64,000 bases of DNA from Patescibacteria group bacterium UBA6017. Its GTDB lineage: Bacteria; Patescibacteriota; Saccharimonadia; UBA4664. Every line of letters begins with the position of its first letter. Positions within the stretch are counted from its first letter, which is position 1. Shown here in pieces: positions 582-61,879 of the stretch. A program made the translations under genes and the position numbers. The notes under the pieces are model-generated. The model was not told the DNA's origin, did no database searches, and saw only the letters and a program-made list of their open reading frames with translations. The stretch covers positions 5,461 through 69,460 of the forward strand of contig DIZX01000009.1 in NCBI GenBank assembly GCA_002429485.1, in the 5' to 3' direction.

Positions 582-2510
582 TTACCTGATTCGCCGGGAA
601 GCAGACAGATCTGTGCCACGAACGGCCGGCGCTGAGACTGAGGCCTGGCTACTATCCTCCGATCCCGGAATAGGCATTGCAACTGCCGGCAGCGGCTTAG
701 GAGCGTCTACGGGAACTGGAATCGGAGCGGGCGTCGGCTCGGGTGCCGGAGCGGGTGGCGGTACGGATGGAGCGGGCGCAGTATGGTTGGTTTCGGGGGT
801 AACCGTACCGCCCGGCTGCTGGGCGCCGGGGGTTGTGGGAGCTTGCTGCAAGCGCACAACCTCAGCTTCGGTGAGGCGCGGCAGAGTGAAGCGGAAGCTG
901 CTACCCTCGCCCGGCTTTGATTCTACCCAGATTCGTCCGTTATATGCCTCGATCAGGTTGCGGCAAAGGTATAGACCGAGGCCGGTACCGCCGATGGTAC
1001 GGGTAGCCGAGTTATCGATGCGGTAAAACTTTTGGAACAGGTGGGCGATATCTTCTTGGGCGATGCCTACGCCGGTATCGTTGATGCTCACTGTGACTTC
1101 TTTGTCGTTACCTTCCAGCACCACTCTGATGCCGCCTTCGGGCGTAAATTTCATGGCATTATCGATGAGGTTCATTATGACTTCCCGCAGGCGTTCGGGG
1201 TTGGCGGCTACGTAAAATAGCGGCGAAATGGCTTTGCCGGTTTGATTGCCGATCTGGTATACCAGTGTCAGATTCTTCTTTTGGAGCGTGAACTGCATAT
1301 CGTCTACCGCGTGTTCGATGAGTTGGCCGACGTTTGAGGCTTCCATACGCCCGCCCAGCTGACCCTCCTCGGCTTTGGTGACACTCAGAAGGTCGCGGAA
1401 GAGCTCGCCGAGGTGGCCGATTGTGTCGTGAGCTTTGGTGAGGTATTTCATAGCCCGGTCATCGATCGTGGCCACGTTGGCGTTCATGGCTAGCGAAATG
1501 TAGCCTTCGATAGCGGCGACTGGTGTACGCATTTCGTGACTGGCCGTGCTGATGAATTCGTCTTTTTGGCGCCCGACTTCTTTTTCGGCACTGATATCGC
1601 GAAATAGGGCAATAGCACCGTTGGGCTGATGCTTATCGTCGAAAATCGGAGATATCGAAATACTCAACTGAACTTTTCGGCCGCTCCGGGTGGTCATCAC
1701 GAGATTATCTTTCACGACTTCAGCTTGCTTCTTCCAGGACTCCATGAACGGATCATTGAATTCATTTACGGGTTGATCGTCGGAAGTTTTGAGCTGCATT
1801 ACCAGATTGTAATCGATGGATTGGGCGGAAGATTCGTCCCACCCGGTGAGCTCCTGCGCGGCCTTATTGAACAGTTGAATCTTTTTCGTGCTGTCGATCA
1901 CCATTACGCCTTCACCAATACTCGACATGATGGCATCGGCTTTGAGTTGCTCAGTGGTGAGCTGGCCGGCAAGCTTCTCTATTCCGGCGGAATCAGCCCC
2001 TTCCTTGCGACTACGGATGTGGACCCATTCAGCGAGACCCGCGGCGGCAAGCGTGATGCAAAATTGGATGAGGTGGTCAAAGATAAACTGGGTGCTTAGA
2101 CCGTTCATTACAACAACCAGGGCATAATACCCTATCGTTAGGCCAAGTACGGCCAATGATTCGGATAATCCGAAGATACCGGATACCACAATGGCCAGTA
2201 GCCAGAACGAATAGAAGGGTGAATCGAGTCCACCCGTGGAAACGATTACGAGGATGATATTTATGGCCGAAATACAGGTAAGGATCAGTGCCGAAAGTTC
2301 CAGGTGATTGCGACGAAGTACCCGATGTATGGTTGCAAAGTATATTGCAGCAGCCACACCGATCGCGGCTGAGGCAAACAGTAGAGTGGTGTCTGGAATA
2401 AGGGCCGGCGATAAAGTATGGAGGCCAAAAATCACCAAAGCTACACCCGCTCCGAGGCCGGCTTGGAGACGAGCTAAAATCATTAGACTATGAGAGCGTT
2501 GGTTTGACAT
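582..2510 (-). CDS. sensor histidine kinase (multi-TM N-terminus, PAS-like region, HisKA, HATPase_c) with an unusual Pro-rich C-terminal tail
   Basis: H-box ASHEMRTPVAAIEGY; N-box IDNAMKFT; G-boxes DTGVGI and GGTGLGLYLCR. About six N-terminal hydrophobic helices. The last ~100 aa are a P/A/T-rich low-complexity tail. Confidence 0.85.
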   Translation of the reverse strand: MSNQRSHSLMILARLQAGLGAGVALVIFGLHTLSPALIPDTTLLFASAAIGVAAAIYFATIHRVLRRNHLELSALILTCISAINIILVIVSTGGLDSPFYSFWLLAIVVSGIFGLSESLAVLGLTIGYYALVVVMNGLSTQFIFDHLIQFCITLAAAGLAEWVHIRSRKEGADSAGIEKLAGQLTTEQLKADAIMSSIGEGVMVIDSTKKIQLFNKAAQELTGWDESSAQSIDYNLVMQLKTSDDQPVNEFNDPFMESWKKQAEVVKDNLVMTTRSGRKVQLSISISPIFDDKHQPNGAIALFRDISAEKEVGRQKDEFISTASHEMRTPVAAIEGYISLAMNANVATIDDRAMKYLTKAHDTIGHLGELFRDLLSVTKAEEGQLGGRMEASNVGQLIEHAVDDMQFTLQKKNLTLVYQIGNQTGKAISPLFYVAANPERLREVIMNLIDNAMKFTPEGGIRVVLEGNDKEVTVSINDTGVGIAQEDIAHLFQKFYRIDNSATRTIGGTGLGLYLCRNLIEAYNGRIWVESKPGEGSSFRFTLPRLTEAEVVRLQQAPTTPGAQQPGGTVTPETNHTAPAPSVPPPAPAPEPTPAPIPVPVDAPKPLPAVAMPIPGSEDSSQASVSAPAVRGTDLSASRRIR

Positions 2511-2737
2511 CTATCTTATCCGCGAATATAACCCGGCACCATTATGCTTGTGGTTAGATTATGCTCGTATATGCGCTGTCCTGCAACCCACATTGAGGTA
2601 GACAAGCGGCTCTAATCCTGCTATATTTCTATGGTTTTATAGCCATGGTCCACTTACGATCACGGTCCCATACTTTGTATAGGACTGCTTCGCTCGGAAA
2701 GCCCATTGTGCAAGCACATGTGCCTTCACTCGCTCAT

Positions 2738-2812
2738 GGTCCCATCGTCTAGCGGTTAGGACGCTGCCCTCTCACGGCGGTAACAGGAGTTCGATTCTCC
2801 TTGGGACTACCA
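2738..2812 (+). tRNA. tRNA-Glu (anticodon CTC), CCA encoded
   Basis: GGTCCCATCGTCTAGCGGTTAGGACGCTGCCCTCTCACGGCGGTAACAGGAGTTCGATTCTCCTTGGGACTACCA. The acceptor stem pairs 7/7 (G1:U72). The anticodon loop is CT-CTC-AC. The T-loop is GTTCGATTC. The D-loop is typical of Glu tRNAs. Confidence 0.85.
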
Positions 2813-2859
2813 TGCAATTATTTACATCAATCTAGACTCTGCGGAGCCTTTTTTGTTGC
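2807..2859. repeat. direct repeat copy 1 (putative attL): tRNA-Glu 3-prime end plus downstream terminator hairpin
   Basis: CTACCATGCAATTATTTACATCAATCTAGACTCTGCGGAG(C)CTTTTTTG recurs at 8102-8153 with 2 mismatches. It contains hairpin AGACTC-TGCG-GAG(C/T)CT followed by a T6 run. Confidence 0.6.
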
Positions 2860-2887
2860 CCCAAAATAGCTTTTTTGAACCCCGGGG

Positions 2888-4330
2888 CTAATTACCTGTT
2901 GATCGCCGGAGTATACGCCCGATCACTTGCTCTGGAGCTGCCTGGGTCGAATCAATACCCGGGAGTAGCTGGAGGCCGCTAACCATAATGCCGTTGTTAG
3001 TAACATTATACCCATCGATGATGTAGGTAGCACTGGCATGCTCAGCCCAAGTCCGGCCAATACTACGATAGTCTTCGGGTTTTGCAACGGTATCGCGGAT
3101 TAATGCGGAGCTGAATGAATCGCGCTCCGGGTCCTCTTCTAGTAAGCGGCGAACATGTTCGTAAAGCTCCTTTAGTTTTGCGATTCTCTCCAGTTCCACC
3201 TCGTGCTCGCCAGGATTTCGGTTCAACTCTTCTTGCCATTTACTTAGTTGGGCGTAGGTGGGGCGAATTGCTAGAGTGAAGTTTGAAAATTTCTCGGCTT
3301 CGTTCTCATGGAACCCGGCGTTTCGCGCGTCCTGGATAAGTAACGCACGGGCGGATTCGGTCACGCCATCTTGGGAGAAGTTTTTATGGTAATATTCATG
3401 GTGCTTAGTGGCATTTTGATAGAGCATTTCAAATTTTCCCGCAATCTCGGTGAGCCCTTCAAGTATTTTAGCAATCGGTGCGTCTTTCTCGAAGGTAATT
3501 TGGTAGCCTTCATTCACTCTTCTGGCGCTTGCATTCCCATCGTTTTGCACGAGCTCAGTGAAGGGCTCCACGTTTACTCCCGCATCTGTTTTGCGAACGA
3601 CAGTCTCTTTTATGGTGCGAGCTATGGGCTCACCAAATTCTTTGTGCAAGAGTGAGCCCCAAGGCGCATAATGGTTGAGCTTTTCAGCGGCGGATAAATT
3701 TGGGTCTCGGGGCGATTCCTGAGCCGTAGACCCAAAATCAATTACATGAAGGTGTCCGTGCTTATTGGTAGGGACACCCCTGCTTCTGCCTGTTAGTAAT
3801 CGCTCCTCGGGCGAGCCATACCCCCATGAGCCCCATATGGTGGGCTTGCCACTGGCATTCGTGACGATGTTGACGGCCTTCTCGGTTTGCTTCGCAATTA
3901 CACTAGCGAAGCTGGCTTGCTGATCAGGGGGCAAAGTAGAAATATGAAGCATATCGGCTTGACCATCCTGATTCGCATCTCTATTTGCCTCTCGCCACCA
4001 AATCAGTAATTGCGCTGAAATAGTATCTACAGCGTCAAGCCCCGGCGTGAACTCCACCTCTCTGCCGAGTACACCCTCGGCTGCATTTTTTAATCGGTCT
4101 TTGGAGAGTTCGGGTTGGATGTGGGGTGAAGGTACGGGCGTTATGCATGCTTCGGCATTGCCTAATCGCTCTATACCGCTGAAGGCTTCGCCTTCAGCAA
4201 ATATATTTTCGCCATCTTTTCGCTCCATTAAGGGCGGTATTACTTCTATAGGGATGCTCCCTCCATGAAGCAGCTCCTTTGCTGAGGCCTCATTTAGTAG
4301 GTCGTGATGATGGGAGTGCATTTCGGGCAT
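2888..4330 (-). CDS. hypothetical protein (480 aa), first gene of the tRNA-Glu-associated island
   Basis: Long ORF with AT-rich island composition. No family recognised. Contains the His-rich motif KHGHLHVIDFG. Starts MPEMHSHHHDLL. Confidence 0.5.
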   Translation of the reverse strand: MPEMHSHHHDLLNEASAKELLHGGSIPIEVIPPLMERKDGENIFAEGEAFSGIERLGNAEACITPVPSPHIQPELSKDRLKNAAEGVLGREVEFTPGLDAVDTISAQLLIWWREANRDANQDGQADMLHISTLPPDQQASFASVIAKQTEKAVNIVTNASGKPTIWGSWGYGSPEERLLTGRSRGVPTNKHGHLHVIDFGSTAQESPRDPNLSAAEKLNHYAPWGSLLHKEFGEPIARTIKETVVRKTDAGVNVEPFTELVQNDGNASARRVNEGYQITFEKDAPIAKILEGLTEIAGKFEMLYQNATKHHEYYHKNFSQDGVTESARALLIQDARNAGFHENEAEKFSNFTLAIRPTYAQLSKWQEELNRNPGEHEVELERIAKLKELYEHVRRLLEEDPERDSFSSALIRDTVAKPEDYRSIGRTWAEHASATYIIDGYNVTNNGIMVSGLQLLPGIDSTQAAPEQVIGRILRRSTGN

Positions 4331-4435
4331 GTGTGGAACCTCTTTTTGATTGAAGTATATTACCGTCGTAGCCTATACTGTTTCAGGTTAATTCAGAATA
4401 TTTTTTAAACCCAATTCCGCTAGGCTAGTCTATCT

Positions 4436-5521
4436 ATGAATACAATATATTGTAGGGGCTATGTAAAACATAGCTACCCTATCCATCTTTCCGTGCAAGC
4501 TGAATTCGATGATTTCTTCGACCTTCTTCCGCCTTCTCAGAACTGCTTTGTAGTTGTTGATGAGAAACTTTTAGAGCTTTTTCCAAAGTTAGTTTTAAGG
4601 CTTAAGCAAAGCCAGGCACGTATAATACCCATCGCGTGTACCGAACAAAACAAATCTTTGGATGGACTAACGATGATATTTGAAGAAGTTTTTTCACACA
4701 AGCCCAATCGAGACGATATTTTAATAGCGATAGGTGGCGGATTAATCACGAATCTGGGTGGGCTTGCTGCTTCTTTGATTATGCGGGGAATGCGTTTTTA
4801 TTACGTACCGACAACTCTAACTGGTCAAATCGATGCATCTATCGGCTCAAAACAGGCGATTAATTATAGCGGGGCAAAGAACTGGCTGGGGATGTATAAC
4901 GACCCAGAGTTTTGCTACGTTAATCCTAACTTTCTCACTACAAAACCGATAGATGAGCTTAATTCTGAGATGATCGAGGGGGTAAAGTTATGTCTGGCTA
5001 CGGATAAGCAATTGTTCTACCGGGTTCTCGATGAAATTAATGGTTTTCGTGAGCGAGACCCCCAATCGCTGGCTTCGTTTGTAGAGAAGATGATTAAAGC
5101 TAAGGTGGCGGTAGTCGAAAGAGATTTGCTCGAAGAGGATTATGGCATGAGTATGCTGTACGGCCATACGCTTGGCCACGCGATTGAGATGCTCGATCAT
5201 GAGCATTTAAGCCACGGTGAGGCAGTGGGCTTGGGGATGTTAGCAGCCGCACGGATGGCATGCAAGTTGGGGCTAGCGAAAGAAAGCCTGATAACACTTC
5301 ATCAACAGATATTGCAAAAACTTGGTCTCCCAGCCGTGATACCCGGCCATCTTGTGCCTTCCGAGATATATGCAAAGCTCGGTCATAATAAAAAGAATTA
5401 TGGCGGCAAAGTCCGGTTTGTTCTTTTACGGGATGTTGGGGAAATGGCTAAGAACGGGGGCGAATACTATACAGTTGTCCCAGAAAACATCATTATGCAG
5501 TCAATCAAAGAAGGATTCTAG
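4436..5521 (+). CDS. 3-dehydroquinate-synthase-like sugar phosphate cyclase superfamily enzyme (DHQS/EEVS/DOIS-like)
   Basis: Gly-rich NAD site IAIGGGLITNLGGLAA. Metal-binding His motifs GHTLGHAIE and HGEAVGLGM are typical of the DHQS fold. No shikimate-pathway neighbours. Confidence 0.7.
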   Translation: MNTIYCRGYVKHSYPIHLSVQAEFDDFFDLLPPSQNCFVVVDEKLLELFPKLVLRLKQSQARIIPIACTEQNKSLDGLTMIFEEVFSHKPNRDDILIAIGGGLITNLGGLAASLIMRGMRFYYVPTTLTGQIDASIGSKQAINYSGAKNWLGMYNDPEFCYVNPNFLTTKPIDELNSEMIEGVKLCLATDKQLFYRVLDEINGFRERDPQSLASFVEKMIKAKVAVVERDLLEEDYGMSMLYGHTLGHAIEMLDHEHLSHGEAVGLGMLAAARMACKLGLAKESLITLHQQILQKLGLPAVIPGHLVPSEIYAKLGHNKKNYGGKVRFVLLRDVGEMAKNGGEYYTVVPENIIMQSIKEGF

Positions 5522-6292
5522 ATGGAGTTTGAGAACAAGACGGTAATTGTTACCGGTGCCAACAAGGGTATAGGCAAGGTAATCGCGTTATATTTTTATG
5601 AGAATGGTGCGAATGTCGTATTTGCAGTTCGCAATCCTACGAGCCTATCACTTCCCGAGGATGTTGCCTCCTCAAAGAGAGTCTTGGTTACTGCGACCGA
5701 TGTAACAAATGAGAACCTGATTAGGGCCATGGTAGCTAAGGCTATCGAGGCCTACGGTACAATCGACATTCTCGTGAATAATGCTGGCGTTGATCAGCCC
5801 ATGCCCCTCCTCGACATCACTGAAGAGCATCTGGACTACGTATGGGATGCCAATGTTAAGGGACTCGTGATGTGCTCAAAGCATGTTGCAAAGGAAATGG
5901 TGAAACAAAAATCTGGAAAGGTTATTAACCTCTCTTCTATCGCGGGCAAGGAAGGTTCGCTATATCACATTGCGTATGTTTCATCGAAGCACGCGGTTAT
6001 TGGCATCACCAAGTGCATGGCTCGTGAGCTGATACCGTACGGGATTACGGTGAACGCAGTATGCCCAGGCCTTATTGATACCGACATGCTCCAGAACTTC
6101 TTTAAGGAATATTCGAAGCTTACCGGTACAAGCGCCGATGAGGAGCTAAGCAAAATGATTGAGGCGACGCCACGCGGAAGAATGGGTGAACCCCAGGATG
6201 TCGCTGAGCTAGTTGGCTTTTTGGCTTCTGACAGGGCCGCTAATATCGTGGGTCACGCTATCAGTACCGATGGCGGAATATTACAGCACTAG
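5522..6292 (+). CDS. short-chain dehydrogenase/reductase (SDR, FabG-like)
   Basis: TGANKGIGKVIA Rossmann motif, NNAG, and catalytic S...YVSSKHA (YxxxK). ATG immediately follows the upstream stop, suggesting translational coupling. Confidence 0.85.
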   Translation: MEFENKTVIVTGANKGIGKVIALYFYENGANVVFAVRNPTSLSLPEDVASSKRVLVTATDVTNENLIRAMVAKAIEAYGTIDILVNNAGVDQPMPLLDITEEHLDYVWDANVKGLVMCSKHVAKEMVKQKSGKVINLSSIAGKEGSLYHIAYVSSKHAVIGITKCMARELIPYGITVNAVCPGLIDTDMLQNFFKEYSKLTGTSADEELSKMIEATPRGRMGEPQDVAELVGFLASDRAANIVGHAISTDGGILQH

Positions 6293-6299
6293 GACGCAT

Positions 6300-7370
6300 A
6301 TGAAATTACGTATTACTGCGCCCATGCGCGTGGATATCGGCGGAGGGGTGACCGATGTTCCGCAGTTTAGCGAAGAAATTGGAACAGCCGTTGTAAACAT
6401 TGCTCTGGACCTCTACAAGGACCCTGGCTTTACGCTGCCCGCAAATGTGGGCGTTGAAATCTCCGACACACAAAGGGTTGAAAATAGGCTGTTCTTTAAT
6501 GATCGACAGTATGGATTCGATTCTCGGCCTGGTGAAGATCTGTACTTTATCAAGAAGATAATTCTTAAACAGTTAAGCAGTGCTGCATCGGCGAGAAACT
6601 TTGATATTGCCATTTTTAATACCTTACCTCCAGGTACAGGACTAGGGGGTAGTGCTGTATTGTCGCTGTGCCTTTTTACTGCACTACAGCTTTTTTACGC
6701 GCGTCGCAATTCGCGGCCTTCCCCTAGAGTCATACTGGAAGCACACGAATTTGAAACGATAGATTTAGGCATTAAAGGCGGATTTCAAGACTATATAGCG
6801 GCATATTTTGGAGGTTGCAATTATATTAACTTCCCCTCTCTTGCCAAATCTGAACTCGTGAAAGCGTCAACGCTAGGCCTAACAATCCCCTCTCATATTG
6901 AGCAGTTTCTTAATGAGAGTATGCTTGTAGTGATTTTGAACGAAGAGACTATCAGCTCAAGCCAGATCGTACAGGACGAGGTAGAAAACTTTTATGCAGA
7001 CAAGCAGGGGGTTGGGGCGCATTTACTTGCGATCAAGGAACATAACGCTAAGCTATACGAGATTATGTACCAAAAGAAAATAAGTGATATGCCGTCTGCT
7101 ATTGGTGTTGAAATGAACCAAAGCTGGGCTCACCATAAACAGTTAAGTAGTCTGATAGCTCGCAGCCTCCTCAAAGATATTGAAAAGACGGTACAGCCAC
7201 TGACCTACGGACTCCGGGGGCCGGGTGCTGCCGGTAATAGCTTGTTTTTGCTCGCCAAGCCGGAAAACAAAGATGAGGTTATCGCGTATCTGTCTTCGCT
7301 TAGCCACGAGATAACCGTCCTCTACCCACAGGTCAATCAGACTGGCTTGCGTGTGATAAGCGTTGAGTAG
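6300..7370 (+). CDS. GHMP-family sugar/cyclitol kinase
   Basis: The track ORF 6213.. overlaps the SDR. The in-frame ATG at 6300 (MKLRITAPMRVDIGGG) is the likely start. The GHMP ATP motif is LPPGTGLGGSAV. Confidence 0.7.
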   Translation: MKLRITAPMRVDIGGGVTDVPQFSEEIGTAVVNIALDLYKDPGFTLPANVGVEISDTQRVENRLFFNDRQYGFDSRPGEDLYFIKKIILKQLSSAASARNFDIAIFNTLPPGTGLGGSAVLSLCLFTALQLFYARRNSRPSPRVILEAHEFETIDLGIKGGFQDYIAAYFGGCNYINFPSLAKSELVKASTLGLTIPSHIEQFLNESMLVVILNEETISSSQIVQDEVENFYADKQGVGAHLLAIKEHNAKLYEIMYQKKISDMPSAIGVEMNQSWAHHKQLSSLIARSLLKDIEKTVQPLTYGLRGPGAAGNSLFLLAKPENKDEVIAYLSSLSHEITVLYPQVNQTGLRVISVE

Positions 7371-7376
7371 ATATCC

Positions 7377-7970
7377 CTACAGCCCCAACTTCCTCAATGC
7401 GAAGAGGGCAGCGACGAGAGAGTCCGCTACTTCAAACTCCCCCCCCTCAATAAGCTGGATAAGCTCTTCAGGAGTTTTGAGATGAACACGGGTGGGCTCA
7501 TTTTCATCATCTTGTTTTACGCCGGTGGGCTGCGCGTTTTTGGCCATGAACAGATGATGATAGCCGGACATCTTAGTGGGGTAGGCCGCACTTTTAGACA
7601 AGAATGTGACATCGTCGCTGGTGTACCCGGTTTCCTCTTCCATTTCACGCCGTGCGGCCGCCTCGGGGTTCTCGTCTTTATCTAATCCTCCGGCCGGGAA
7701 CTGATACATATTCTTGCCTACCCCGTGACGATATTGCTCGCAAATGACGAATTTACCATCGGTGGTGAAGGGGACAATGGTAGCAATATTGGGCGATTCC
7801 CAGACAAAGTAGTCATTTACAGTTTTGCCGGACGGTAATTGGACTTCATCTTTGCGTACGGGGAACCAGCGCTCATTTAAAGCCATGCTCGTCGAGAGAA
7901 CCTTCCAGGGTTTGATTTCGGGGTCGTTTTGAGGAGAAGAGAGATTGTTCGTCATGACCAGATTATACAT
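7377..7970 (-). CDS. NUDIX hydrolase
   Basis: Nudix box GGLDKDENPEAAARREMEEETGY (Gx5Ex7REUxEExGU). Confidence 0.8.
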   Translation of the reverse strand: MYNLVMTNNLSSPQNDPEIKPWKVLSTSMALNERWFPVRKDEVQLPSGKTVNDYFVWESPNIATIVPFTTDGKFVICEQYRHGVGKNMYQFPAGGLDKDENPEAAARREMEEETGYTSDDVTFLSKSAAYPTKMSGYHHLFMAKNAQPTGVKQDDENEPTRVHLKTPEELIQLIEGGEFEVADSLVAALFALRKLGL

Positions 7971-8101
7971 GTTTGCATCGGCCTGTAGACGAACAAGGTT
8001 CTAGTAGCCGCTGGTAGTACTCATAGGGGATGACTGACCGAGAACTTTGTACTAGGCAATCAATTCCCTCTTGATAAGGTTCCAATTCGAAATACGGTAG
8101 T

Positions 8102-8153
8102 CTACCATGCAATTATTTACATCAATCTAGACTCTGCGGAGTCTTTTTTGATG
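8102..8153. repeat. direct repeat copy 2 (putative attR) of the tRNA-Glu 3-prime end and terminator
   Basis: CTACCATGCAATTATTTACATCAATCTAGACTCTGCGGAGTCTTTTTTG has the perfect hairpin AGACTC-TGCG-GAGTCT plus T6. It is preceded by a degenerate T-arm-like stretch GGTTCCAATTCG. Confidence 0.6.
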
Positions 8154-8238
8154 TCCGCGTCAATTATTAATTGAATTGCTCCCTCTCTGGCGCCGGAATA
8201 TTTTGATCTCCGTATAGCAATGATTATGGGTCGTTCTA

Positions 8239-8267
8239 TTGACATATCATACTTCTTATGTTAATAT
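8239..8267 (+). promoter_or_regulatory. sigma-70-like promoter (TTGACA-17-TAATAT) for the small membrane protein gene
   Basis: TTGACA at 8239-8244, a 17-nt spacer, then TAATAT at 8262-8267. The RBS GGAGG lies 6 nt before the ATG at 8327. Confidence 0.4.
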
Positions 8268-8326
8268 CTTTTTTGTTCGATACCTAGACAACCCGCGTTT
8301 TCGTTAACGTTCCTGGAGGCAACCCA

Positions 8327-8644
8327 ATGATTGTCCTGTCCGCCCTGATCGACATCATTCTGTTCGTTTTCTTTTGCTCAGTTTGCACTGAGCTGGAGGA
8401 GGCTCCGGCCTCGATCAACAACGGAACCAACTTGGGCATCATCGCCCTTATGTTCGCCATTCCGGCGTTCTTGTGCGGCGATGGCTGGAACAAAACCCTC
8501 GTGCTGGGTCTTCTGGTTCTCACCGCCTGCGGGATCTCGATCCTTGTGGGTCTCAAGCGTCACGGAGTGGGTCCTTACACCAAGAGGTCCGGGCACTGCG
8601 ATTGCTGCCCACTCAGTGCTGCTGCCCAGTCGCCTATCGTCTAG
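8327..8644 (+). CDS. small integral membrane protein (105 aa, 3 predicted TM, Cys-rich C-terminus)
   Basis: Good RBS (GGAGGCAACCCAATG) and an upstream consensus promoter. Hydrophobic helices. No family recognised. Confidence 0.45.
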   Translation: MIVLSALIDIILFVFFCSVCTELEEAPASINNGTNLGIIALMFAIPAFLCGDGWNKTLVLGLLVLTACGISILVGLKRHGVGPYTKRSGHCDCCPLSAAAQSPIV

Positions 8645-11312: not shown

Positions 11313-12107
11313 CTAAAGTTCAACTCGATCAATTTTGATCGGCTTACCATAGAGCCGTGCAGCCAGCTGCACGGCTTGGTCTGTTAGATCGGTTACCAAG
11401 AATTCCCGTGAGCGTTGTTTGGAAATAGTTAAGTCGAGGCCCGGATGAGCGATTAAGTACTGATGAACTTTGGCCGGAATGATCTCGTCCTGGGAAATTA
11501 TGGTTACTCCGTGCCCCATTTGGTCTGCAATGAGATGTTTGAACAGAGGGTAATGGGTGCAGCCGAGAATTAAAGTGTCAACACCGCCAAGCGGCCGAAG
11601 GTAGTCGGCGATGATTGGAGCAGCCCATTTGGTGGCGTCGTTTTCGACCAGCGGCACTAGTAAGGGTGCGGCGACGGAGGTTACCTGTACGTCCAGGAAC
11701 AGTTTCCCCAGTTCGCGGTCGAAGGCACCGGATGAGATGGTGGCATTGGTGGCCAATACTCCGATGCGGCCGGTCTTGGTGGCGGCGACGGCAGCCTCGG
11801 CAGCTGGAATCAGTACGCCGAGCACGGCCTTCCCCGGGTGATGCTTCGGGAGGTATTCGCCCTGAAGTTTGTGTAGCGCTTCAGCCGAGGCCGTATTGCA
11901 CGCCACTATCACAATGCCGCAGCCGCGGGCAAACAGATGATCGATAGCTGCACGGGTAAATTCGTAGATGGTGTCGTGGGAACGGTTGCCGTAGGGTACT
12001 CGAGCCGTGTCGCCGAGGTAAACATAGTCGTACTGGGGCAGTGCCTGCGTAAGGCTGTGGGTAATAATAAGCCCACCGAGTCCGGAGTCGAATATACCTA
12101 TCTTCAT
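11313..12107 (-). CDS. murI: glutamate racemase
   Basis: MKIGIFDSGLGG...VYLGDTARVPYG...IVIVACNTASA. The track N-terminal extension (11313..12227) is rejected in favour of the ATG at 12107. Confidence 0.85.
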   Translation of the reverse strand: MKIGIFDSGLGGLIITHSLTQALPQYDYVYLGDTARVPYGNRSHDTIYEFTRAAIDHLFARGCGIVIVACNTASAEALHKLQGEYLPKHHPGKAVLGVLIPAAEAAVAATKTGRIGVLATNATISSGAFDRELGKLFLDVQVTSVAAPLLVPLVENDATKWAAPIIADYLRPLGGVDTLILGCTHYPLFKHLIADQMGHGVTIISQDEIIPAKVHQYLIAHPGLDLTISKQRSREFLVTDLTDQAVQLAARLYGKPIKIDRVEL

Positions 12108-12147: not shown

Positions 12148-12924
12148 GTGTCAGAATACCACCGTATGAACGTTGAGCTAAATAATCTGCGAGTGGTGGC
12201 GGTGGATGGCGGTACTGCCACCGGCAAAGGCCGGCTGATAGATGAGCTGGCTCAACTTTTGCGGCTCAAAGGTACTCCGGTGATTCACATTTCTACGGGA
12301 TCAATCTACCGGGCCGTGGCGCTAGTGGCGATTGAGGATGCCTCCGAGAAAGTGATGGGCCGAGCCGATATGGCGCCGCCGGATATAATTAAGGCGGCGC
12401 TGAAATTGGTGCGCGAGATGACGGCCGATAAATTGCTGGATCTGGTGCATACGCGCCAGATCGAGATGCACGGCGGTCAGGTGTGGATAGACGGGACGCT
12501 GGCGTCGGTGGATGATCAGCTCAAGGGTCCGGGAGTGGGCACGGGAGCTTCGATCGTGAGCGTTCCGTTGCCGGTGCGTGATTGGGTATCAGATATTGTT
12601 CGCCGCCAAATTAATGAGTTTGACGGTTTTGCTCTGATTGACGGGCGCGATATTGGGCACACGGTAGTTCCGGACGCGCCGCTTAAGCTACTCCTGACGG
12701 TGGCGCCGGAGGTGGCTGCCGAGCGTTCGCGTGAGCACACAATCGAGGAGATTATCGACCGCGACAGTCGTGACCGCGCCAAACAACACGGGGCACTCAA
12801 ACACCCGGATGATCCCGGTGAAGGGGTACTGGTCCTGGCTACCGATACGCACACACCGGAATCGGTGCGCGATCACGTATACGCGTTGATGCAGGGTATC
12901 TTTCGGGATCTACCATCGTTGTAG
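12148..12924 (+). CDS. cmk: cytidylate kinase-like (CMP kinase)
   Basis: P-loop AVDGGTATGKG, TGSIYRAVAL, DGRDIGHTVVPDAPLKLLLT and RDSRDRAK all match the Cmk pattern. The N-terminal P-loop is somewhat atypical. Divergent from murI. Confidence 0.65.
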   Translation: MSEYHRMNVELNNLRVVAVDGGTATGKGRLIDELAQLLRLKGTPVIHISTGSIYRAVALVAIEDASEKVMGRADMAPPDIIKAALKLVREMTADKLLDLVHTRQIEMHGGQVWIDGTLASVDDQLKGPGVGTGASIVSVPLPVRDWVSDIVRRQINEFDGFALIDGRDIGHTVVPDAPLKLLLTVAPEVAAERSREHTIEEIIDRDSRDRAKQHGALKHPDDPGEGVLVLATDTHTPESVRDHVYALMQGIFRDLPSL

Positions 12925-12994
12925 TAGGACGAGATGAGGCCAAGTGATTGCTCTTCACGTTGTCGAATGCATTAAATAGGATAAAATAGAATTC

Positions 12995-13996
12995 ATGAAA
13001 GTACTTGTGACTGGCGGTGCCGGCTATATCGGCACCCATACTGTAATCGAATTGTTGGCGGCAGGCATGGAGCCGGTGATAGTTGATAACTTCTCAAATA
13101 GCCATCCTGATGTGCTGGATAGGCTTGAGCAGATTAGCGGAACAAAAGTGCGGTGCTACGATGTGGATGCGTGCGACTCGCGGGCTCTGGGCGATGTATT
13201 CGAGAAAGAACGCCCGGATACGGTAATACATTTTGCGGGTCTAAAGGCAGTTGGAGAATCGGTGGAGCAGCCACTCGCCTACTATCGCAATAATCTTTTG
13301 GCGGTGATCACGGTTGCGGAATCAATGTCAAAGTACGGCGTGCGCAATCTGGTATTTAGCTCGTCGGCGACAGTTTACGGCGACCCCGATCAGGTTCCGA
13401 TCCCCGAAGACGCGCCGCTTAGTGCCACCAATCCTTATGGCTGGACGAAGTTTATGGGAGAGCAGATATTGCGCGACGTGGCATTGGCTGACTCCAAACG
13501 CCGGATCACCATATTAAGATACTTTAATCCCGTGGGAGCGCACGAGAGCGGGCTGATCGGCGAAGATCCGTTGGGCCCACCGAACAATCTCATGCCAATG
13601 ATCGCCCAGGTGGCGACCGGTCAGCGCGAGCGCTTGAACGTATACGGCAATGATTATCCTACTCAGGATGGTACTGCCGTACGTGATTATATTCATGTGG
13701 TGGATCTGGCGAAGGCGCACGTGCGGGCGCTCGAACATCAGATTGGTACTTCCGGCATTGATACCTACAACTTGGGTGCCGGCAAGGGTTATTCGGTGCT
13801 GGAAATGGTTGCCGCCTTCGAGAAGGCCTCGGGCAAGACTATTGGGTACAAGATTGTTGATCGCCGCGCCGGCGACGTGGCAGTGTGCTTTGCGGACACT
13901 TCGCTGGCGGCGCGAGAACTGGGCTGGGAGGCCATGAAGACACTGGCTGACATGTGCGCGGACGCATGGCGCTGGCAGTCGCGGAACATTAAATAG
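12995..13996 (+). CDS. galE: UDP-glucose 4-epimerase
   Basis: MKVLVTGGAGYIGTHT Rossmann motif, the S...YxxxK triad (SSSATVYG, YGWTK), 333 aa. Confidence 0.85.
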   Translation: MKVLVTGGAGYIGTHTVIELLAAGMEPVIVDNFSNSHPDVLDRLEQISGTKVRCYDVDACDSRALGDVFEKERPDTVIHFAGLKAVGESVEQPLAYYRNNLLAVITVAESMSKYGVRNLVFSSSATVYGDPDQVPIPEDAPLSATNPYGWTKFMGEQILRDVALADSKRRITILRYFNPVGAHESGLIGEDPLGPPNNLMPMIAQVATGQRERLNVYGNDYPTQDGTAVRDYIHVVDLAKAHVRALEHQIGTSGIDTYNLGAGKGYSVLEMVAAFEKASGKTIGYKIVDRRAGDVAVCFADTSLAARELGWEAMKTLADMCADAWRWQSRNIK

Positions 13997-13998
13997 TG

Positions 13999-15063
13999 AT
14001 GCGCCAAGTTGCCTCGATGTTGGCGTCATTAAAGTGGCCGGCTGTTGTACTTGTTTTCGGAATTGTTGCGGCCTGGATAGTCGGAGGGCCGGCTCAGGCA
14101 TTGGTGGTTACTATCCTATGCATTCTCGAAGTATCGCTGTCATTCGATAATGCGGTGATAAATGCGACTGTCCTGCGTCGTCTCAATGGTTATTGGCGGA
14201 AGATATTCCTGACGGTGGGAATGTTGATTGCGGTCGTTGGGATGCGGTTGGTATTTCCGGTTGCAATAGTAGCGGTGACGGCAAAGCTGAGCTTTGGCGC
14301 CGTGATCGATCTGATATTGCTTCATCCGCTCGAATACGCTCATCAGCTTGAACTGGCGCATCCCTCGATCGCGGCCTTTGGCGGCATGTTTTTATTGATG
14401 ATATTCCTGGATTTTGTGCTCGACGAGGCCAAGCGGGTGCATTGGATCGCTGTTATTGAGGAGCCTTTATCCCAAGGCGGACGCCTGAAGACGCTGTCGA
14501 CGCTAATTGCGCTAATGCTGCTGCTAGTGGTGTGTAGCACTTGGGGTCAACAGGAAGCTGAGCTGGTTCTGAGCTCCGGAGTGGTTGGCATCGTGACGTA
14601 TCTGGCGGTGCGTGGATTTAGCCAATTGTTTGAGAATTTGGGCGGGGTGTCGCTGGAGGAATCTGGTAAGCATCGTAACGGCGGCGAAGTTATTCTTCTG
14701 GCGGGGCGGGCCGCTTTTTTTCTGTTCTTGTATCTGGAGGTGCTCGATGCATCGTTTTCGTTTGACGGGGTCGTGGGGGCATTCGCAATCACGAGCAATG
14801 TACTGACGATCACGCTGGGCCTTGGTATCGGGGCGTTCTTTGTGCGGGAATTGACGATTTGGCTGGTCCGGCACGACACCCTGAGCGAGTTTGTATACCT
14901 GGAACATGGAGCTCACTACGCGGTCGGGGCGCTGGCAGTGCTGTTGGCGGCGAGTCTAAAATACGATATCCCACAGGCCGTTACGGGCTTAGTGGGAGTG
15001 GTATTTATCGTGCTTTCGCTAGTTTCGAGCCTGAATCATCGTAACCGGCGAGCGGTTGTCTAA
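13999..15063 (+). CDS. TerC/DUF475-family integral membrane protein
   Basis: Multi-TM protein with E-SLSFDNAVINA and LEVLDASFSFDGV repeats (LSxDNxxV motif). The ATG at 13999 overlaps the galE stop. Confidence 0.55.
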   Translation: MRQVASMLASLKWPAVVLVFGIVAAWIVGGPAQALVVTILCILEVSLSFDNAVINATVLRRLNGYWRKIFLTVGMLIAVVGMRLVFPVAIVAVTAKLSFGAVIDLILLHPLEYAHQLELAHPSIAAFGGMFLLMIFLDFVLDEAKRVHWIAVIEEPLSQGGRLKTLSTLIALMLLLVVCSTWGQQEAELVLSSGVVGIVTYLAVRGFSQLFENLGGVSLEESGKHRNGGEVILLAGRAAFFLFLYLEVLDASFSFDGVVGAFAITSNVLTITLGLGIGAFFVRELTIWLVRHDTLSEFVYLEHGAHYAVGALAVLLAASLKYDIPQAVTGLVGVVFIVLSLVSSLNHRNRRAVV

Positions 15064-28805: not shown

Positions 28806-28891
28806 GCCGCTGTGGTGGAATGGTAGACACAAGGGACTCAAAATCCCTCGACTTCACGGTCATGTCGGTTCGACTCCGACCAGCGGTACCA
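28806..28891 (+). tRNA. tRNA-Leu (anticodon CAA), long variable arm, CCA encoded
   Basis: GCCGCTGTGGTGGAATGGTAGACACAAGGGACTCAAAATCCCTCGACTTCACGGTCATGTCGGTTCGACTCCGACCAGCGGTACCA. The 7-bp acceptor pairs (G1:U72). The anticodon loop is CT-CAA-AA. The extra arm is about 15 nt. Confidence 0.85.
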
Positions 28892-29019
28892 TTGAACTTA
28901 TGTTTAACAGACCCGAACGGTCTGTTTTCAATTTATTACTCCTGGAGATAAAACAAGCGCGCCTCGCTCACTGGCGCCTGAACGGCAGAAGTGAGCGAGG
29001 CGATGGCGCCAGATATTCT

Positions 29020-53924: not shown

Positions 53925-54788
53925 AGCCCCTATTGTATACGCTTTAAGCCATTTATGTTATCGTACATCTGATCTTTGGGATCTGCCCGGAGCGAACCAC
54001 TGGAGTTGAAGAGATGAATGATGTCGTCGTTTTGCACGTCGTGAACTATCGCGGCAAGCAGGTGCACTGTCACCGTCCGCCCGTGAAAACGCAGGGGCCG
54101 TTCGTGTTCTTCTCACTCACTGCACCCTTCGTCTTTGTCGACGTGATCGATACCGGTACCTACGGCGACAACAACATCGTCGTGCTCAACGAGGAATCGA
54201 GCGGGTACATCGACCCGAACCTGCCCGAGACGGACGAGGTGAAGATCTACAACCTTTCCGCCGTCGATCAGGACGTTCTGTTCTGTACATGACACAACTC
54301 GCTTCGTGCACTCGCGCCGCTCCGGTCTTCCGGGGCGGCGTTGCGCTTTACGAAATTATTGATGAACGATCAAAGTAATGCCATTATAATGTTTGTCGTT
54401 GTTTAACCGCACGGCTCGCACCAACGCATCTCAATTCACCTACTGGCCGCAGGGCCGAGACGGGAAGTCCCCTATGCCGAAACGCAGCCTCACTCAAACG
54501 CTCTGGCATTCTATCCAGAGGAACTACCCCTTTGTGCTACTGGCATTCCTGTTCATTCTGGCGGTAGCAGCGGCCTCCTGGTACTTCGGCAGCGGAGTAT
54601 TCAGCTTCGCTGGCTAACCGGCTTCGGCCAACCAACACCCAAATACTGAGTGTCCCCTGGCAGGCGGCGGGAGCAACTATTCCCGCCGCCAGAGCCCCCC
54701 AGATGCGTTGGTGCACAGGCTCAACGATTATTTTCATCGTTCTGATGAGTCCCAAAAAGGACGAAAGCCCAATAGGTACTGGTTGATT

Positions 54789-55826: not shown

Positions 55827-55931
55827 ATAAGAATCCTAGCATGATCTATCGTGCCGAACAAGAGCCGAACAAAATCTTTGCATTTTGCGCAGCCAAAACC
55901 CCAGAGATAAATATCATCTCTGGGGCGGCTG

Positions 55932-57104: not shown

Positions 57105-57185
57105 GTTGGGTCCTTTCCTTTAAGTTATGACAACCTCGGGGCTCAGTTTAGTCCTAAACCCCGGTCCGCCTCCGATACGTATGAC

Positions 57186-57210
57186 GAAAAACGTCTCCGT
57201 ATGGGAGACG
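57186..57210 (-). terminator. rho-independent terminator of the RM/membrane-protein operon (minus strand)
   Basis: On the minus strand: CGTCTCC-CATAC-GGAGACG followed by TTTTTCG. Confidence 0.45.
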
Positions 57211-57386
57211 CACCGTGACCTAAAATTTTATCGTAAGTTAGATAAGTAGATCCGATACGCCCGAGCTGGCCTTCCGCATGGAAAATTCAGCAGCAACAAC
57301 CCCGCCGGTATACAGGCGGCTGGTCGAGGTCGTGATGTGGTTCGGGTAGTATCGATTCATAATGTACGTACTATAACAGGTTGTGG

Positions 57387-61218: not shown

Positions 61219-61249
61219 GTATTGCCATTATACCCTGATTATTCCTAGC

Positions 61250-61876: not shown

Positions 61877-61879
61877 GAA

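Follow-up and report, generated by a model that had tools for sequence, protein, structure and literature searches.

Islands associated with tRNA genes, and the elements known as CIMEs, are inserted at the 3′ end of a tRNA, are bracketed by direct repeats that contain its terminus, have a lower GC content than their flanks and carry cargo that is missing from the same site in relatives; CIMEs lack recombination genes as well. In the streamlined genomes of Prochlorococcus, the tRNA-flanking variable islands called Tycheposons come with recombinase and replication genes of their own. A biochemical parallel is provided by C7N-aminocyclitol biosynthesis of the validamycin-acarbose type, in which a cyclase, a kinase and a nucleotidyltransferase lead in turn to NDP-valienol. 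The locus described here, from a member of the Saccharimonadia (TM7, Patescibacteria) with a tiny genome, invites comparison with all of these. It lies in a 64-kb stretch of DNA (the window, in what follows); here five genes stand between two nearly identical direct repeats directly downstream of a tRNA-Glu gene. With slightly more confidence than doubt, we read it as a mobile islet without an integrase that would have arrived at the 3′ end of the tRNA, carrying a five-gene module predicted to make a cyclitol nucleotide.

The tRNA-Glu Locus and Its Flanking Repeats

The features of the locus, in window coordinates, are as follows.

2738-2812, + strand: tRNA-Glu gene, anticodon CTC (CUC), CCA encoded (ARAGORN, and Rfam RF00005 at 58.4 bits)
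2807..2861, + strand: left direct repeat (attL-like), made of the CTACCA of the tRNA and 49 nt of the downstream terminator region
2888..4330, − strand: 480-aa protein of a new family with a predicted HIT/GalT-like fold and the conserved motif PTN(K)HGHLHVIDF
4331..4435, no strand: divergent intergenic region of 105 nt that separates the 480-aa gene from the cyclase operon, with presumed promoters
4436..5521, + strand: sugar phosphate cyclase, DHQS/DOIS-like (Pfam DHQ_synthase and DHQS_C)
5522..6292, + strand: short-chain dehydrogenase/reductase, SDR (adh_short and adh_short_C2, E about 1e-57)
6300..7370, + strand: GHMP-family sugar kinase of the HddA/WcbL (anomeric heptose kinase) type (GHMP_kinases_N)
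7377..7970, − strand: NUDIX hydrolase of the ADP-ribose / ADP-sugar / NDP-sugar pyrophosphatase type (NUDIX), convergent with the kinase gene
7971..8101, no strand: right arm, 131 nt without a gene, from the NUDIX start codon to the right repeat
8102..8156, + strand: right direct repeat (attR-like) with a terminator-like hairpin (8129-8144) and a T-run, identical in eight independent contigs

The earlier note on this DNA had listed a DHQS-like cyclase, an SDR, a GHMP kinase, a NUDIX hydrolase and a 480-aa unknown, and all five assignments proved correct. The kinase start is given at 6300, as in gene calls on other assemblies (the mechanical open reading frame begins at 6213). The divergent arrangement of the 480-aa gene and the cyclase operon is kept in every cassette-bearing locus, and the region between them holds one promoter-like match, recognised by consensus only (4350-4379, + strand). 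The right arm includes a promoter-like site for the NUDIX gene (7989-7962, − strand), and its first ~50 nt resemble the corresponding stretch of L018, a cassette-bearing relative. The longest intergenic gaps, these 105- and 131-nt stretches, could not accommodate an integrase or what is left of one; the island holds five cargo genes and no integrase, as the note had it, and no recombinase gene was found in or near it in the part of the 64-kb window that was checked. The island (2862-8101) is also AT-richer than its flanks, again as claimed, with a GC content of 47.4%, the rest of the window having 54.7%; when non-overlapping windows of the same size are compared, only 3.6% are as low, all of them in one other region, at 54-62 kb.

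A repeat search of the window yielded one 55-nt direct repeat, 52/55 identical (95%), with mismatches at repeat positions 41, 50 and 53 and an exact first 40 nt; over the 52 nt originally reported there are two mismatches, as stated. It starts 6 nt before the end of tRNA-Glu, placing the insertion point at the extreme 3′ end of that gene, and its copies bracket the five genes. The exact 40-mer occurs twice in the 64 kb (0/100 shuffles), and the local-alignment score was reached in none of 2000 shuffles. The pair is no assembly artefact, because independent JGI (L009, 143-kb contig) and ENA (L010, 76-kb contig) assemblies, which match positions 2701-8400 at 100%, both hold the two copies.

The left copy is homologous to the sequence found once downstream of tRNA-Glu in the island-free genomes L027 and L028, CTACCA-GCAATTATTT-GGCTCTGCGGAGCC-T7, and the repeated DNA is the native 3′ flank and terminator region of the tRNA, in keeping with the earlier view that the repeats include the tRNA end and its terminator. 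The hairpin of the left copy has one stem mismatch. Because no gene on the + strand terminates immediately before the right copy, the latter has no obvious terminator role at 8102-8156, and no convincing tRNA remnant lies upstream of it.

The tRNA contributes to the repeat its last 6 nt only (CTACCA), unusually few by comparison with tRNA-targeting tyrosine integrases; this counts against the island-insertion reading.

The Cargo Enzymes and a Predicted Pathway

The cyclase scores 252 bits against the aroB equivalog, whose cut-off is 305 bits, and falls below every NCBIfam equivalog cut-off. Its clade comprises ~29 clusters at 268 bits or above; true AroB comes only after a gap, with scores that do not exceed 190 bits. 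The best match of solved structure is BtrC, a DOIS (2-deoxy-scyllo-inosose synthase), at 159 bits, with DHQS at 149; the sedoheptulose-7-phosphate cyclases ValA and DDGS reach only 91 and 89, and the module has no aminotransferase, so the C7-cyclitol or aminocyclitol pathway once proposed finds no specific support here. An active-site comparison, which the note had recommended, revealed Gly237 and Leu241 where named AroB proteins (3-dehydroquinate synthase) have Arg and Asn, and the difference holds across the clade. The roles of the residues concerned (Arg264 and Asn268 in DHQS, Glu243 in DOIS) are presumed from the structural literature; on the same presumption the protein retains every metal, phosphate and catalytic residue of sugar phosphate cyclases, and two substrate-side positions differ. 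It represents a new clade of sugar phosphate cyclases, apparently other than 3-dehydroquinate synthase. The suggestion that the cargo does not serve the shikimate pathway is borne out; to our knowledge, aromatic amino acid synthesis is absent from Saccharimonadia.

The 480-aa protein has no Pfam or NCBIfam match and does not resemble GalT at the sequence level (hhalign probability 0.4%). Its family consists of 15 clusters with a conserved GHxH motif, and it is taken to be a nucleotidyl transferase or phosphorylase. This HIT/GalT-like candidate tips the balance toward the nucleotide-sugar-like pathway that the note had also considered. The family and the cyclase clade are two new, previously undescribed enzyme families. 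The SDR exceeds the cut-off of the glucose 1-dehydrogenase subfamily, is 62-76% identical in L004, L007, L021 and L024 and absent from the L018 variant, and presumably serves as the ketoreductase that acts on what the cyclase makes. The best NCBIfam match of the GHMP kinase is HddA, at 74.6 bits and far under the HddA cut-off, and its best PDB matches (3k85, 4n3o, 4usk) are all heptose phosphate kinases. The NUDIX protein is NudE-like in NCBIfam, carries a precomputed PF28549 NDPSase_N assignment, and finds its best PDB matches in NudF and ADP-ribose pyrophosphatases.

Enzyme families, gene order and co-occurrence suggest a route from cyclitol to cyclitol phosphate to NDP-cyclitol, so the module probably makes a nucleotide-activated carbocyclic sugar. 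The cyclase would convert a sugar phosphate other than DAHP to a carbocyclic keto-cyclitol (an inosose or deoxy-inosose), whose ketone the SDR would reduce to give the cyclitol. The HddA-like kinase would phosphorylate the latter and the 480-aa protein would transfer a nucleotidyl group to it, yielding NDP-cyclitol, a predicted pair of steps that mirrors GalK and GalT of the Leloir pathway. The ADP-sugar-type Nudix enzyme may trim or recycle the nucleotide conjugate, and the product probably feeds cell-envelope glycosylation or serves as a solute.

One could also envision the island as real and its cargo as catabolic: the Nudix enzyme and a HIT/GalT-like phosphorylase would degrade a host-derived nucleotide sugar or ADP-ribose-like compound, and the sugar so released would pass to the kinase, the reductase and the cyclase-like enzyme, the last of these serving as an NAD-dependent dehydrogenase or lyase. 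Saccharimonadia are scavenging epibionts, which suits such a role, as does the resemblance of the Nudix protein to ADP-ribose pyrophosphatases. However, the cyclase retains the presumed metal, phosphate and catalytic residues, with changes at those two substrate-side positions only, and we know of no catabolic member of its superfamily. Moreover, a GT4 glycosyltransferase precedes a homolog of the 480-aa protein in L022/L023, and the cassette of L069 has an additional CTP_transf_like nucleotidyltransferase, pairings that suggest biosynthesis. We consider the catabolic role improbable.

The Module at Other Loci

The five-gene module is rare and moves as a unit. It is found at unrelated loci in other bacteria at 28-83% protein identity, with the same gene order and orientation in L004, L007, L021 (Candidatus Saccharibacteria), L024 and L069, the last of which has a gene content unlike that of Saccharimonadia and a 480-aa protein copy only 28% identical. 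Its neighbours elsewhere, typical of variable regions, include Eco29kI-type restriction-modification with an AAA_15 ATPase, ParE/RHH, Replic_Relax and Fic, and a PIN toxin.

Travel in regions of this defence-island-like kind (Eco29kI-type restriction-modification, AAA_15 ATPase, ParE, Fic, PIN) would be explained if the product were a chemical weapon against phages or competitors, a small aminoglycoside-like or nucleotide-analogue compound; the closest solved relative of the cyclase starts aminoglycoside biosynthesis, and the Nudix protein weakly matches the PADLOC candidate PDC-S07. Yet such neighbours are expected of any mobile cargo, no PADLOC system was matched and 4/5 proteins had no PADLOC match at all, aminotransferase and glycosyltransferase are both absent from the module, and no relatives were found in viral contigs. 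A defensive role therefore seems very improbable to us, and a cyclitol nucleotide is the product that we favour.

Other tRNA genes in this group bear similar marks. In L007, a heliorhodopsin module adjoining the cassette stands between copies of an 89-nt repeat (0/2000 shuffles), which starts with the final 6 nt of tRNA-Arg, GTACCA. The relative L065 (84% GltX identity) carries an element that has a large serine recombinase and a Toprim primase and whose junction with the chromosome falls exactly at the CCA end of tRNA-Leu; in the window this site is empty. In this group, tRNA 3′ ends are recombination sites.

At 3/6 independent cassette loci no tRNA lies within 10 kb, which counts against the tRNA-islet reading.

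The Same Site in Relatives and the Origin of the Islet

Orthologous tRNA-Glu genes adjoin the same histidine kinase in L018, L026, L027 and L028. Three of these relatives, L026 and L027 (one species, near-identical in sequence) and L028, have in common with the window the upstream kinase (66-72% identity) and the tRNA, carry a single copy of the terminator region and have other genes 3′ of the tRNA, as the note's reading of the segment as an island would predict. The tRNA sequences place island-bearing L018 with L027 and the window with L028, both of these partners being island-free; since these groupings mix both states, the presence of the island is patchy. An extra T after CCA is common to the two island-bearing genomes and absent from the two island-free ones.

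L018 has its own pair of matching flanking copies, built from its own hairpin sequence. Because this orthologous hairpin differs from that of the window, yet the window copies are 95% identical, the repeat pairs point to recent recombination or gene conversion and not to an old relic. A decayed island, as the earlier note had it, fits such copies poorly; the description of the island as fixed stands, inasmuch as every contig of the species that reaches across the site carries it, in material from at least 8 metagenome samples. The note had also recognised a classic att duplication left by site-specific integration, which is still the most economical reading, though one tempered by the missing recombinase and by the fact that no island-free genome sharing the right flank was found.

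The events can be envisioned as follows. Recombination at the ...TACCA end of tRNA-Glu(CUC), or close to it, would have placed the module precisely at the 3′ end of the gene, so that the last 6 nt of the tRNA and some 49 nt of the native terminator region became duplicated. The module could have been acted on by a recombinase encoded elsewhere, in the manner of a cis-mobilisable element, or a circular copy with the tRNA flank could have integrated via a single Campbell-type crossover. The two repeat copies may then have stayed, or again become, nearly identical through later recombination.

The cassettes of the window and L018 are 70-83% identical in protein and about 70% in DNA, a divergence similar to that of the flanking kinase, so old vertical inheritance with losses is possible. 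The genes would then have stood beside tRNA-Glu before the window and L018 split, without any integration, and the L027 and L028 lineages would since have lost them. The right repeat would be a local duplication of the tRNA terminator, for instance one that stops read-through from the cyclase operon into a downstream 105-aa gene, kept similar to the left copy by selection or gene conversion. The absence of an integrase and the fixation in every sampled population agree with this, the right copy forms a good terminator hairpin on the + strand that could stop antisense read-through from the operon, and the hairpin appears to be under selection, because it is conserved even in island-free relatives. 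However, the duplicated segment starts exactly inside the tRNA (CTACCA) and not at the hairpin, the island GC lies 7 points under the flanks, the module occurs at unrelated loci in distant genomes amid toxin-antitoxin, restriction-modification and relaxase-like genes, and the same architecture, the last 6 tRNA nt plus flank, surrounds different cargo at the tRNA-Arg of L007. An old locus would also require two independent losses and two independent terminator duplications, and we regard it as unlikely; arrival by recombination at the tRNA end is the account that we prefer.

Comparison with Known Systems

The islet shares with tRNA-associated islands and CIMEs all the features named at the outset, including, as in CIMEs, the absence of recombination genes. 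It differs in that just 6 tRNA nt and 49 nt of downstream flank are duplicated and in that it consists of five cargo genes and nothing else, and neither a cognate integrase nor a parent element was found for it. Like Tycheposons, it belongs to a small, streamlined genome, and L007 shows comparable cargo arrays 3′ of tRNAs split by partial tRNA/flank repeats; recombinase and replication genes are absent here, and the likeness is architectural only.

With regard to the cargo, the validamycin-acarbose logic, in which a sugar phosphate cyclase acts first and the pseudo-sugar is then phosphorylated and activated with a nucleotide, recurs in the module, but with a GHMP kinase in place of a ROK-type enzyme, a HIT-like protein in place of a GlgC-type transferase, a cyclase that is not EEVS-like, and neither pseudoglycosyltransferase nor aminotransferase. 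As in Leloir GalK/GalT and HddA/HddC activation, a GHMP sugar kinase gene adjoins that of a putative HIT/GalT-fold protein with a His-x-His motif; the kinase is closest to anomeric heptose kinases, and the CTP_transf_like gene of the distant L069 cassette adds to the HddA/HddC likeness. Unlike GalT, the 480-aa protein has a large helical insertion, and its presumed substrate is a carbocycle instead of a sugar. The cyclase itself is homologous to BtrC and to DHQS over its full length, and has in common with BtrC a KQA(V/I)N motif and a Gly at the position of DHQS Arg264. Its module lacks the aminotransferase partner, and it belongs to its own clade of ~29 clusters. DHQS, BtrC and the cyclase all keep the NAD, metal, phosphate and catalytic residues, and they differ at the position occupied by Asn268 in DHQS, Glu243 in BtrC and Leu in the cyclase.

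A repeated tRNA-Glu end bounds a five-gene islet

The gene for tRNA-Glu(CTC), called by both ARAGORN and Rfam, shares its 3′ end with a direct repeat that occurs at 2807-2861 and again at 8102-8156. The two copies are identical at 52 of 55 nt, the initial 40 nt being exact, and across the first 14 kb this is the one long direct repeat that is conspicuous. The repeat starts with CTACCA, the final six bases of the tRNA, and extends across the downstream hairpin and T-run, much as the earlier note had described it; a permutation test of the local alignment gave 0/2000 shuffles. The 40-mer is found exactly twice in the 64-kb window (0/100 shuffles). Both copies are intact in two other contigs of the species, one of 143 kb from JGI (L009) and one of 76 kb from ENA (L010), each a 100% match to window positions 2701-8400, and since these contigs are independent, the repeat structure is not an assembly artefact. 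The right copy was recovered with identical flanks in six further contigs.

The 5240 nt between the copies have a GC content of 47.4%, compared with 54.7% in the rest of the window, which places the island among the lowest 3.6% of non-overlapping windows; equally low values are met elsewhere only at 54-62 kb. Five genes fill this interval almost wholly, with gaps of at most 131 nt:

2738-2812, + strand: tRNA-Glu(CTC), preceding the interval
2888-4330, - strand: 480-aa protein, no family hit
4436-5521, + strand: DHQS-like protein (the cyclase) with both DHQS domains
5522-6292, + strand: SDR
6300-7370, + strand: GHMP kinase (PF00288, GHMP_kinases_N, 41.8 bits against a cut-off of 22.3 bits)
7377-7970, - strand: NUDIX hydrolase

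The low GC content and the five-gene inventory had both been claimed from the sequence and hold up, the latter by Pfam and NCBIfam family assignment. So does the statement that an integrase is absent: no integrase, recombinase or remnant of one was found within the island, all five of whose ORFs fall in other families.

Some smaller features of the site and the window can be recorded here. Within the right repeat copy (8125-8154) lies a perfect 6-bp hairpin, AGACTC/GAGTCT, with no obvious function at that place, and the left copy (2830-2859), the expected terminator of the tRNA transcript, carries a stem mismatch (GAGCCT). A possible degenerate tRNA remnant to the left of the right repeat was dismissed on account of its weak alignment, and Rfam found only the two tRNAs, with no riboswitch or other known RNA. 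The second low-GC region, 54000-62000, probably a further acquired or defence island, reaches its minimum of 45.4% near 57.2 kb and encodes a RhuM-family gene (54789-55826), an MFS transporter, an IrrE/M78 peptidase gene and a type ISP/IIG restriction-modification enzyme of 1036 aa (58108-61218, with N6_Mtase and Type_ISP_C).

Occupancy of the tRNA-Glu site within and beyond the species

An exact look-up of the 105-aa protein encoded beyond the right repeat returned nine contigs, and every one long enough to span the site is occupied. The occupied contigs come from at least eight samples and represent a population that is 99.9-100% identical; no empty site was seen among the contigs carrying the 105-aa gene, the short ones breaking inside the repeat. 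Apparent variants within the island in public contigs were set aside: a run of N (481-533) in L013 is an assembly artefact rather than a structural variant, L001 ends in Nextera adapter sequence CTGTCTCTTATACACATCT (4983-5005) and is likewise artefactual, and a 140-nt difference in L012 and two gap openings in L014 are presumed to be artefacts as well.

The histidine kinase encoded upstream of tRNA-Glu has orthologs of 66-72% identity in two island-free relatives (L026/L027 and L028), in each case near a tRNA-Glu(CTC). Behind that tRNA both relatives have a single copy of the repeat sequence, CTACCA-GCAATTATTT-GGCTCTGCGGAGCC-TTTTTTT, and therefore the repeat is the native 3′ flank and terminator of tRNA-Glu. 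Neither the cassette nor the right-flank genes of the window were found in these relatives, which have other genes downstream of tRNA-Glu, so that this 3′ flank looks to be a variable site. Because they and the window have no right flank in common, the exact empty site could not be reconstructed from L026-L028. In L027 the gene facing the tRNA-Glu terminator (1414-3282) is made up in part of a 177-nt (59-aa) unit repeated five times in tandem, and its 622-aa product has no Pfam hit.

A related species, represented by contigs from three JGI samples (L018, L019 and L020), has the cassette at the same tRNA-Glu, where the L018 proteins are 70% (480-aa protein), 78% (cyclase) and 83% (Nudix) identical to those of the window. 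In all three contigs (L018:2122-4707) the SDR gene is missing and the GHMP kinase is without about 56 residues around its ATP-binding motif, which may reflect either decay or an alternative pathway. The 115 nt of right flank in L018 match nothing in L026-L028 or the window. The tRNA-Glu of L018 is identical to that of island-free L027, and the window's is closest to that of island-free L028, so the presence of the cassette is patchy relative to its hosts. The sequence after the tRNA follows island status, being CCA-T-GCAATTATT in both island-bearing genomes and CCA-GCAATTATT in both island-free ones.

These comparisons bear on the age of the structure, which the earlier note had read as a fixed or decayed island. 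The terminator hairpin of L018 differs in sequence from that of the window, and L018 repeats part of its own hairpin, TTCACGGGGC(G)TTTTTTGT, at the far end of its cassette (1/2000 shuffles); left and right copies are thus more alike within each genome than to their orthologs across genomes. This pattern does not fit one old insertion that then decayed neutrally; it would be accounted for by recent or repeated recombination in each lineage or by gene conversion between the copies. A decayed island is accordingly less likely than a recently recombined site.

The cassette at other loci

Outside this site the five genes were found in GCA_040384045.1 (L004), in two assemblies of one organism (L007/L008), in a Candidatus Saccharibacteria genome (L021), in two assemblies with one protein in common (L024/L025, L024 being from groundwater) and in L069, whose NQR/Rnf-like, Crp and TspO neighbours are not Saccharimonadia-like. 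The arrangement is kept throughout, the 480-aa gene being divergent from cyclase-SDR-kinase and the Nudix gene convergent, even in L069, where the cyclase is 41% identical and a 509-aa homolog of the 480-aa protein is 28% identical (hhalign probability 100%). L069 also has an extra CTP_transf_like nucleotidyltransferase gene beside the Nudix gene (13502-13993). The neighbours differ at each locus and are often of variable-region types: an Eco29kI-type restriction-modification system and an AAA_15 ATPase in L004, ParE/RHH, a Replic_Relax protein and Fic in L021, and a PIN toxin in L024. From gene order and context, the five-gene module appears to travel as a unit.

Counting the window and L018 as one site, three of the six independent cassette loci have a tRNA gene in the vicinity: tRNA-Glu right beside the cassette in the window and L018, tRNA-Arg at 1.6 kb in L007 and tRNA-Gln at 5.4 kb in L004. 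No tRNA was found within 10 kb of the cassette in L021, L024 or L069. Repeats in L021 (GGTCACCA...) were dropped as candidate att sites, being located in paralogous small ORFs.

tRNA 3′ ends as recombination sites

The tRNA-Arg(TCT) locus of L007 offers a second case of duplication at a tRNA end. Past this gene (12745-14339) the 3′ end of the tRNA recurs as a 16-nt duplicate at a distance of 181 nt, followed in order by an 89-nt sequence, a heliorhodopsin/DUF378 module, the 89-nt sequence again and lastly the cassette, Nudix end first. The two copies of the 89-nt sequence are about 76% identical (0/2000 shuffles), and both start with GTACCA, the final six bases of tRNA-Arg. The architecture, in which the last 6 nt of a tRNA are joined to its downstream flank, is that of the window with other cargo.

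A recombinase is seen at a tRNA end in L065 (GCA_038245115.1), a comparison contig whose GltX is 84% identical to the window's. There, an element encoding a large serine recombinase of 539 aa along with a Toprim primase (1-2470) abuts the chromosome precisely at the CCA end of tRNA-Leu(CAA); in the window the same tRNA-Leu(CAA) is followed by an ordinary terminator (28806-28960), so the site is unoccupied. Given this element, mobile elements of the lineage do make use of tRNA genes at their extreme 3′ ends. No recombinase of the L065 type was linked to the tRNA-Glu islet, and a serine recombinase would not by itself be the source of the 55-nt duplication. As for a phage origin, both the 480-aa family and the tRNA junction 20-mer are absent from IMG/VR.

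A shorter element of 29 nt, TGGTACAGC...GAAATGAGAAC, has three copies around the L007 cassette (7300-7328, 12058-12086 and 12821-12849), and the copies at 7300 and 12821, of 83% identity, bracket it. Its 12-mer core, CACGAAATGAGA, is found directly after the CCA end of tRNA-Gln in an unrelated contig, L023 (622-645).

The cyclase and its host

The window's housekeeping genes include GltX, MreB, a sortase, ScpA/B and cytidylate kinase. All named relatives of its GltX are Candidatus Saccharimonadia, Saccharibacteria or Patescibacteria, and the sole GTDB species representative with a relative of the 480-aa protein, in a set where the window's own species was not found, is L021, a Candidatus Saccharibacteria MAG. 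By these affiliations the host is a TM7-type bacterium. In Saccharimonadia and other bacteria of the candidate phyla radiation, metabolism is minimal and the cells live fixed to other bacteria as their hosts. The Saccharimonadia/TM7 group is not known to make aromatic amino acids, and this speaks against a part in the shikimate pathway for the DHQS-like gene.

The cyclase itself points the same way. It scores 252 bits against an aroB cut-off of 305 and lies under every NCBIfam equivalog cut-off, and in a search of 5.8 billion proteins it fell in a clade of about 29 clusters at 268 bits or more, separated by a gap from ordinary AroB, which scored no more than 190 bits. When it was aligned with other members of the clade and with named AroB proteins, R117, D133, K139, N149, E181, K184, K223, H244, H248, H260 and K319/K320 (window numbering) were all kept, positions that we take to be the NAD, metal, phosphate and catalytic residues of sugar phosphate cyclases. 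The clade departs from AroB in the segment before G-H-T, which is R-x-x-L-N in AroB, G-x-x-x-L (YGMSMLYGHT) in the clade and G-x-x-x-E in BtrC; Gly237 and Leu241 thus stand, clade-wide, at the Arg and Asn positions of named AroB (R-x-x-L-N-x-G-H-T). The Arg of this motif in DHQS presumably binds the carboxylate of DAHP, and the Asn/Glu position presumably contacts phosphate. Taken together, the score, the two substitutions and these residue roles make it very unlikely that the cyclase is a DHQS, and the earlier note's view that the enzyme does not serve the shikimate pathway is sustained by the active-site comparison it had called for.

The other products once suggested fare less well. The best solved relative is BtrC, a 2-deoxy-scyllo-inosose synthase, at 159 bits and an identity only in the 30-40% range; bacterial DHQS reach at most 149 bits, and the sedoheptulose-7-phosphate cyclases ValA and DDGS only 91 and 89 bits, and the enzyme has no specific link to C7 cyclitols. 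An aminocyclitol is no better placed, as no aminotransferase was found in any cassette locus. Nor is the enzyme a canonical DOIS; at the position of BtrC Glu243 it has Leu. A clade cyclase of 52% identity occurs in a different cluster in L068 (6086-10681), whose other members are an SDR, a HAD hydrolase, a GT2 glycosyltransferase and an enzyme of the radical-SAM/SPASM type; the host carries chemotaxis receptors.

The 480-aa protein and a proposed pathway

The family of the 480-aa protein is small, with only about 15 clusters in 5.8 billion proteins, and has no Pfam domain. AlphaFold2, given 15 sequences, yielded a confident model (pLDDT 84.7, pTM 0.87). The most conserved stretch of the family, P-T-N-x-H-G-H-L-H-V-I-D-F, contains two invariant histidines that are also present in the 28%-identical L069 homolog, and we read it as a probable form of the histidine-triad motif; the segment ahead of it can be read as the strand-helix-strand layout of HIT domains. 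Searches with Pfam, NCBIfam, PADLOC, PDB profiles, hhalign against E. coli GalT and Foldseek-PDB gave no match, so that the HIT/GalT-like assignment, which is moderately supported, draws on predicted fold and motif.

A 475-aa homolog of this protein lies directly after a GT4 glycosyltransferase in two comparison contigs (L022:1-5460 and L023:1658-7186). No cyclase, SDR or kinase was found near it; genes for a small HIT protein and a Nudix hydrolase are located about 2 kb beyond it, and in L023 the tRNA-Gln is 2.2 kb upstream.

Among the remaining enzymes, the kinase has the anomeric heptose phosphate kinases HddA and WcbL as its nearest relatives, with full-length matches, and the Nudix protein is of the ADP-ribose / ADP-sugar / NDP-sugar pyrophosphatase type. 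PADLOC matched no system, its only hit being a weak one of the Nudix protein to candidate PDC-S07. The simplest pathway that we infer to be consistent with all five families is one in which the cyclase would convert a sugar phosphate to a keto-cyclitol, the SDR would reduce this to a cyclitol, the GHMP kinase would phosphorylate it and the HIT/GalT-like enzyme would turn the cyclitol phosphate into an NDP-cyclitol, with the Nudix protein hydrolysing or regulating the nucleotide conjugate. A catabolic role for the module is possible. Combining the five families, the cargo most likely encodes a pathway to a nucleotide-activated cyclitol, with two so far undescribed protein families at its base, which favours the nucleotide-sugar-like product among those the earlier note had listed.

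Implications and relation to known systems

A joint reading of cargo and site can be offered tentatively, although we think it rather unlikely to hold as a whole: that the cassette encodes an undescribed pathway to a nucleotide-activated carbasugar or deoxy-cyclitol, is exchanged without an integrase of its own and is captured at tRNA …TACCA ends by a recombination system so far uncharacterised in this phylum. On this joint reading the cyclase would represent a new subfamily of sugar phosphate cyclases and the 480-aa protein a new nucleotidyl transferase of HIT fold, and the cassette would be exchanged as a self-contained unit among ultra-small Saccharimonadia and a few other bacteria. One possibility for its capture is a trans-acting recombinase that recognises the tRNA terminus and terminator, and the near-identity of the repeats would then mean that the islet is still mobile.

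A tRNA island is in itself ordinary, and what makes this one of interest is its cassette, the group to which the host belongs and a repeat that recurs with its start 6 nt before the end of a tRNA. If true, a horizontally exchanged NDP-cyclitol pathway would be an unexpected biosynthetic ability in Saccharimonadia/CPR and could bear on surface chemistry and host attachment. The cyclase clade and the 480-aa HIT/GalT-like family are concrete targets for enzymology, and the tRNA-end repeats of the window and L007, together with the serine-recombinase element of L065, give a way into cassette movement in these genomes. No paper describing the cassette gene set was found in the literature searched.

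The outline of a tRNA island drawn in the earlier note is supported by the repeat at the tRNA end and the GC content, with site-specific integration as its putative origin. Since the islet has no integrase, and excision would be conjectural, we do not assign it to any specific element family. It resembles tRNA-associated genomic islands as a mobile feature, while being without recombination genes, and by analogy the nearest named concept would be that of a cis-mobilisable element, for which the serine-recombinase element of L065 at tRNA-Leu is the only, and an indirect, support. On the side of the cargo, a GHMP sugar kinase beside a putative GalT-fold enzyme may be likened to GalK and GalT, and the proposed pathway would follow the same pseudo-sugar-nucleotide logic as validamycin and acarbose biosynthesis, but with different enzyme families.
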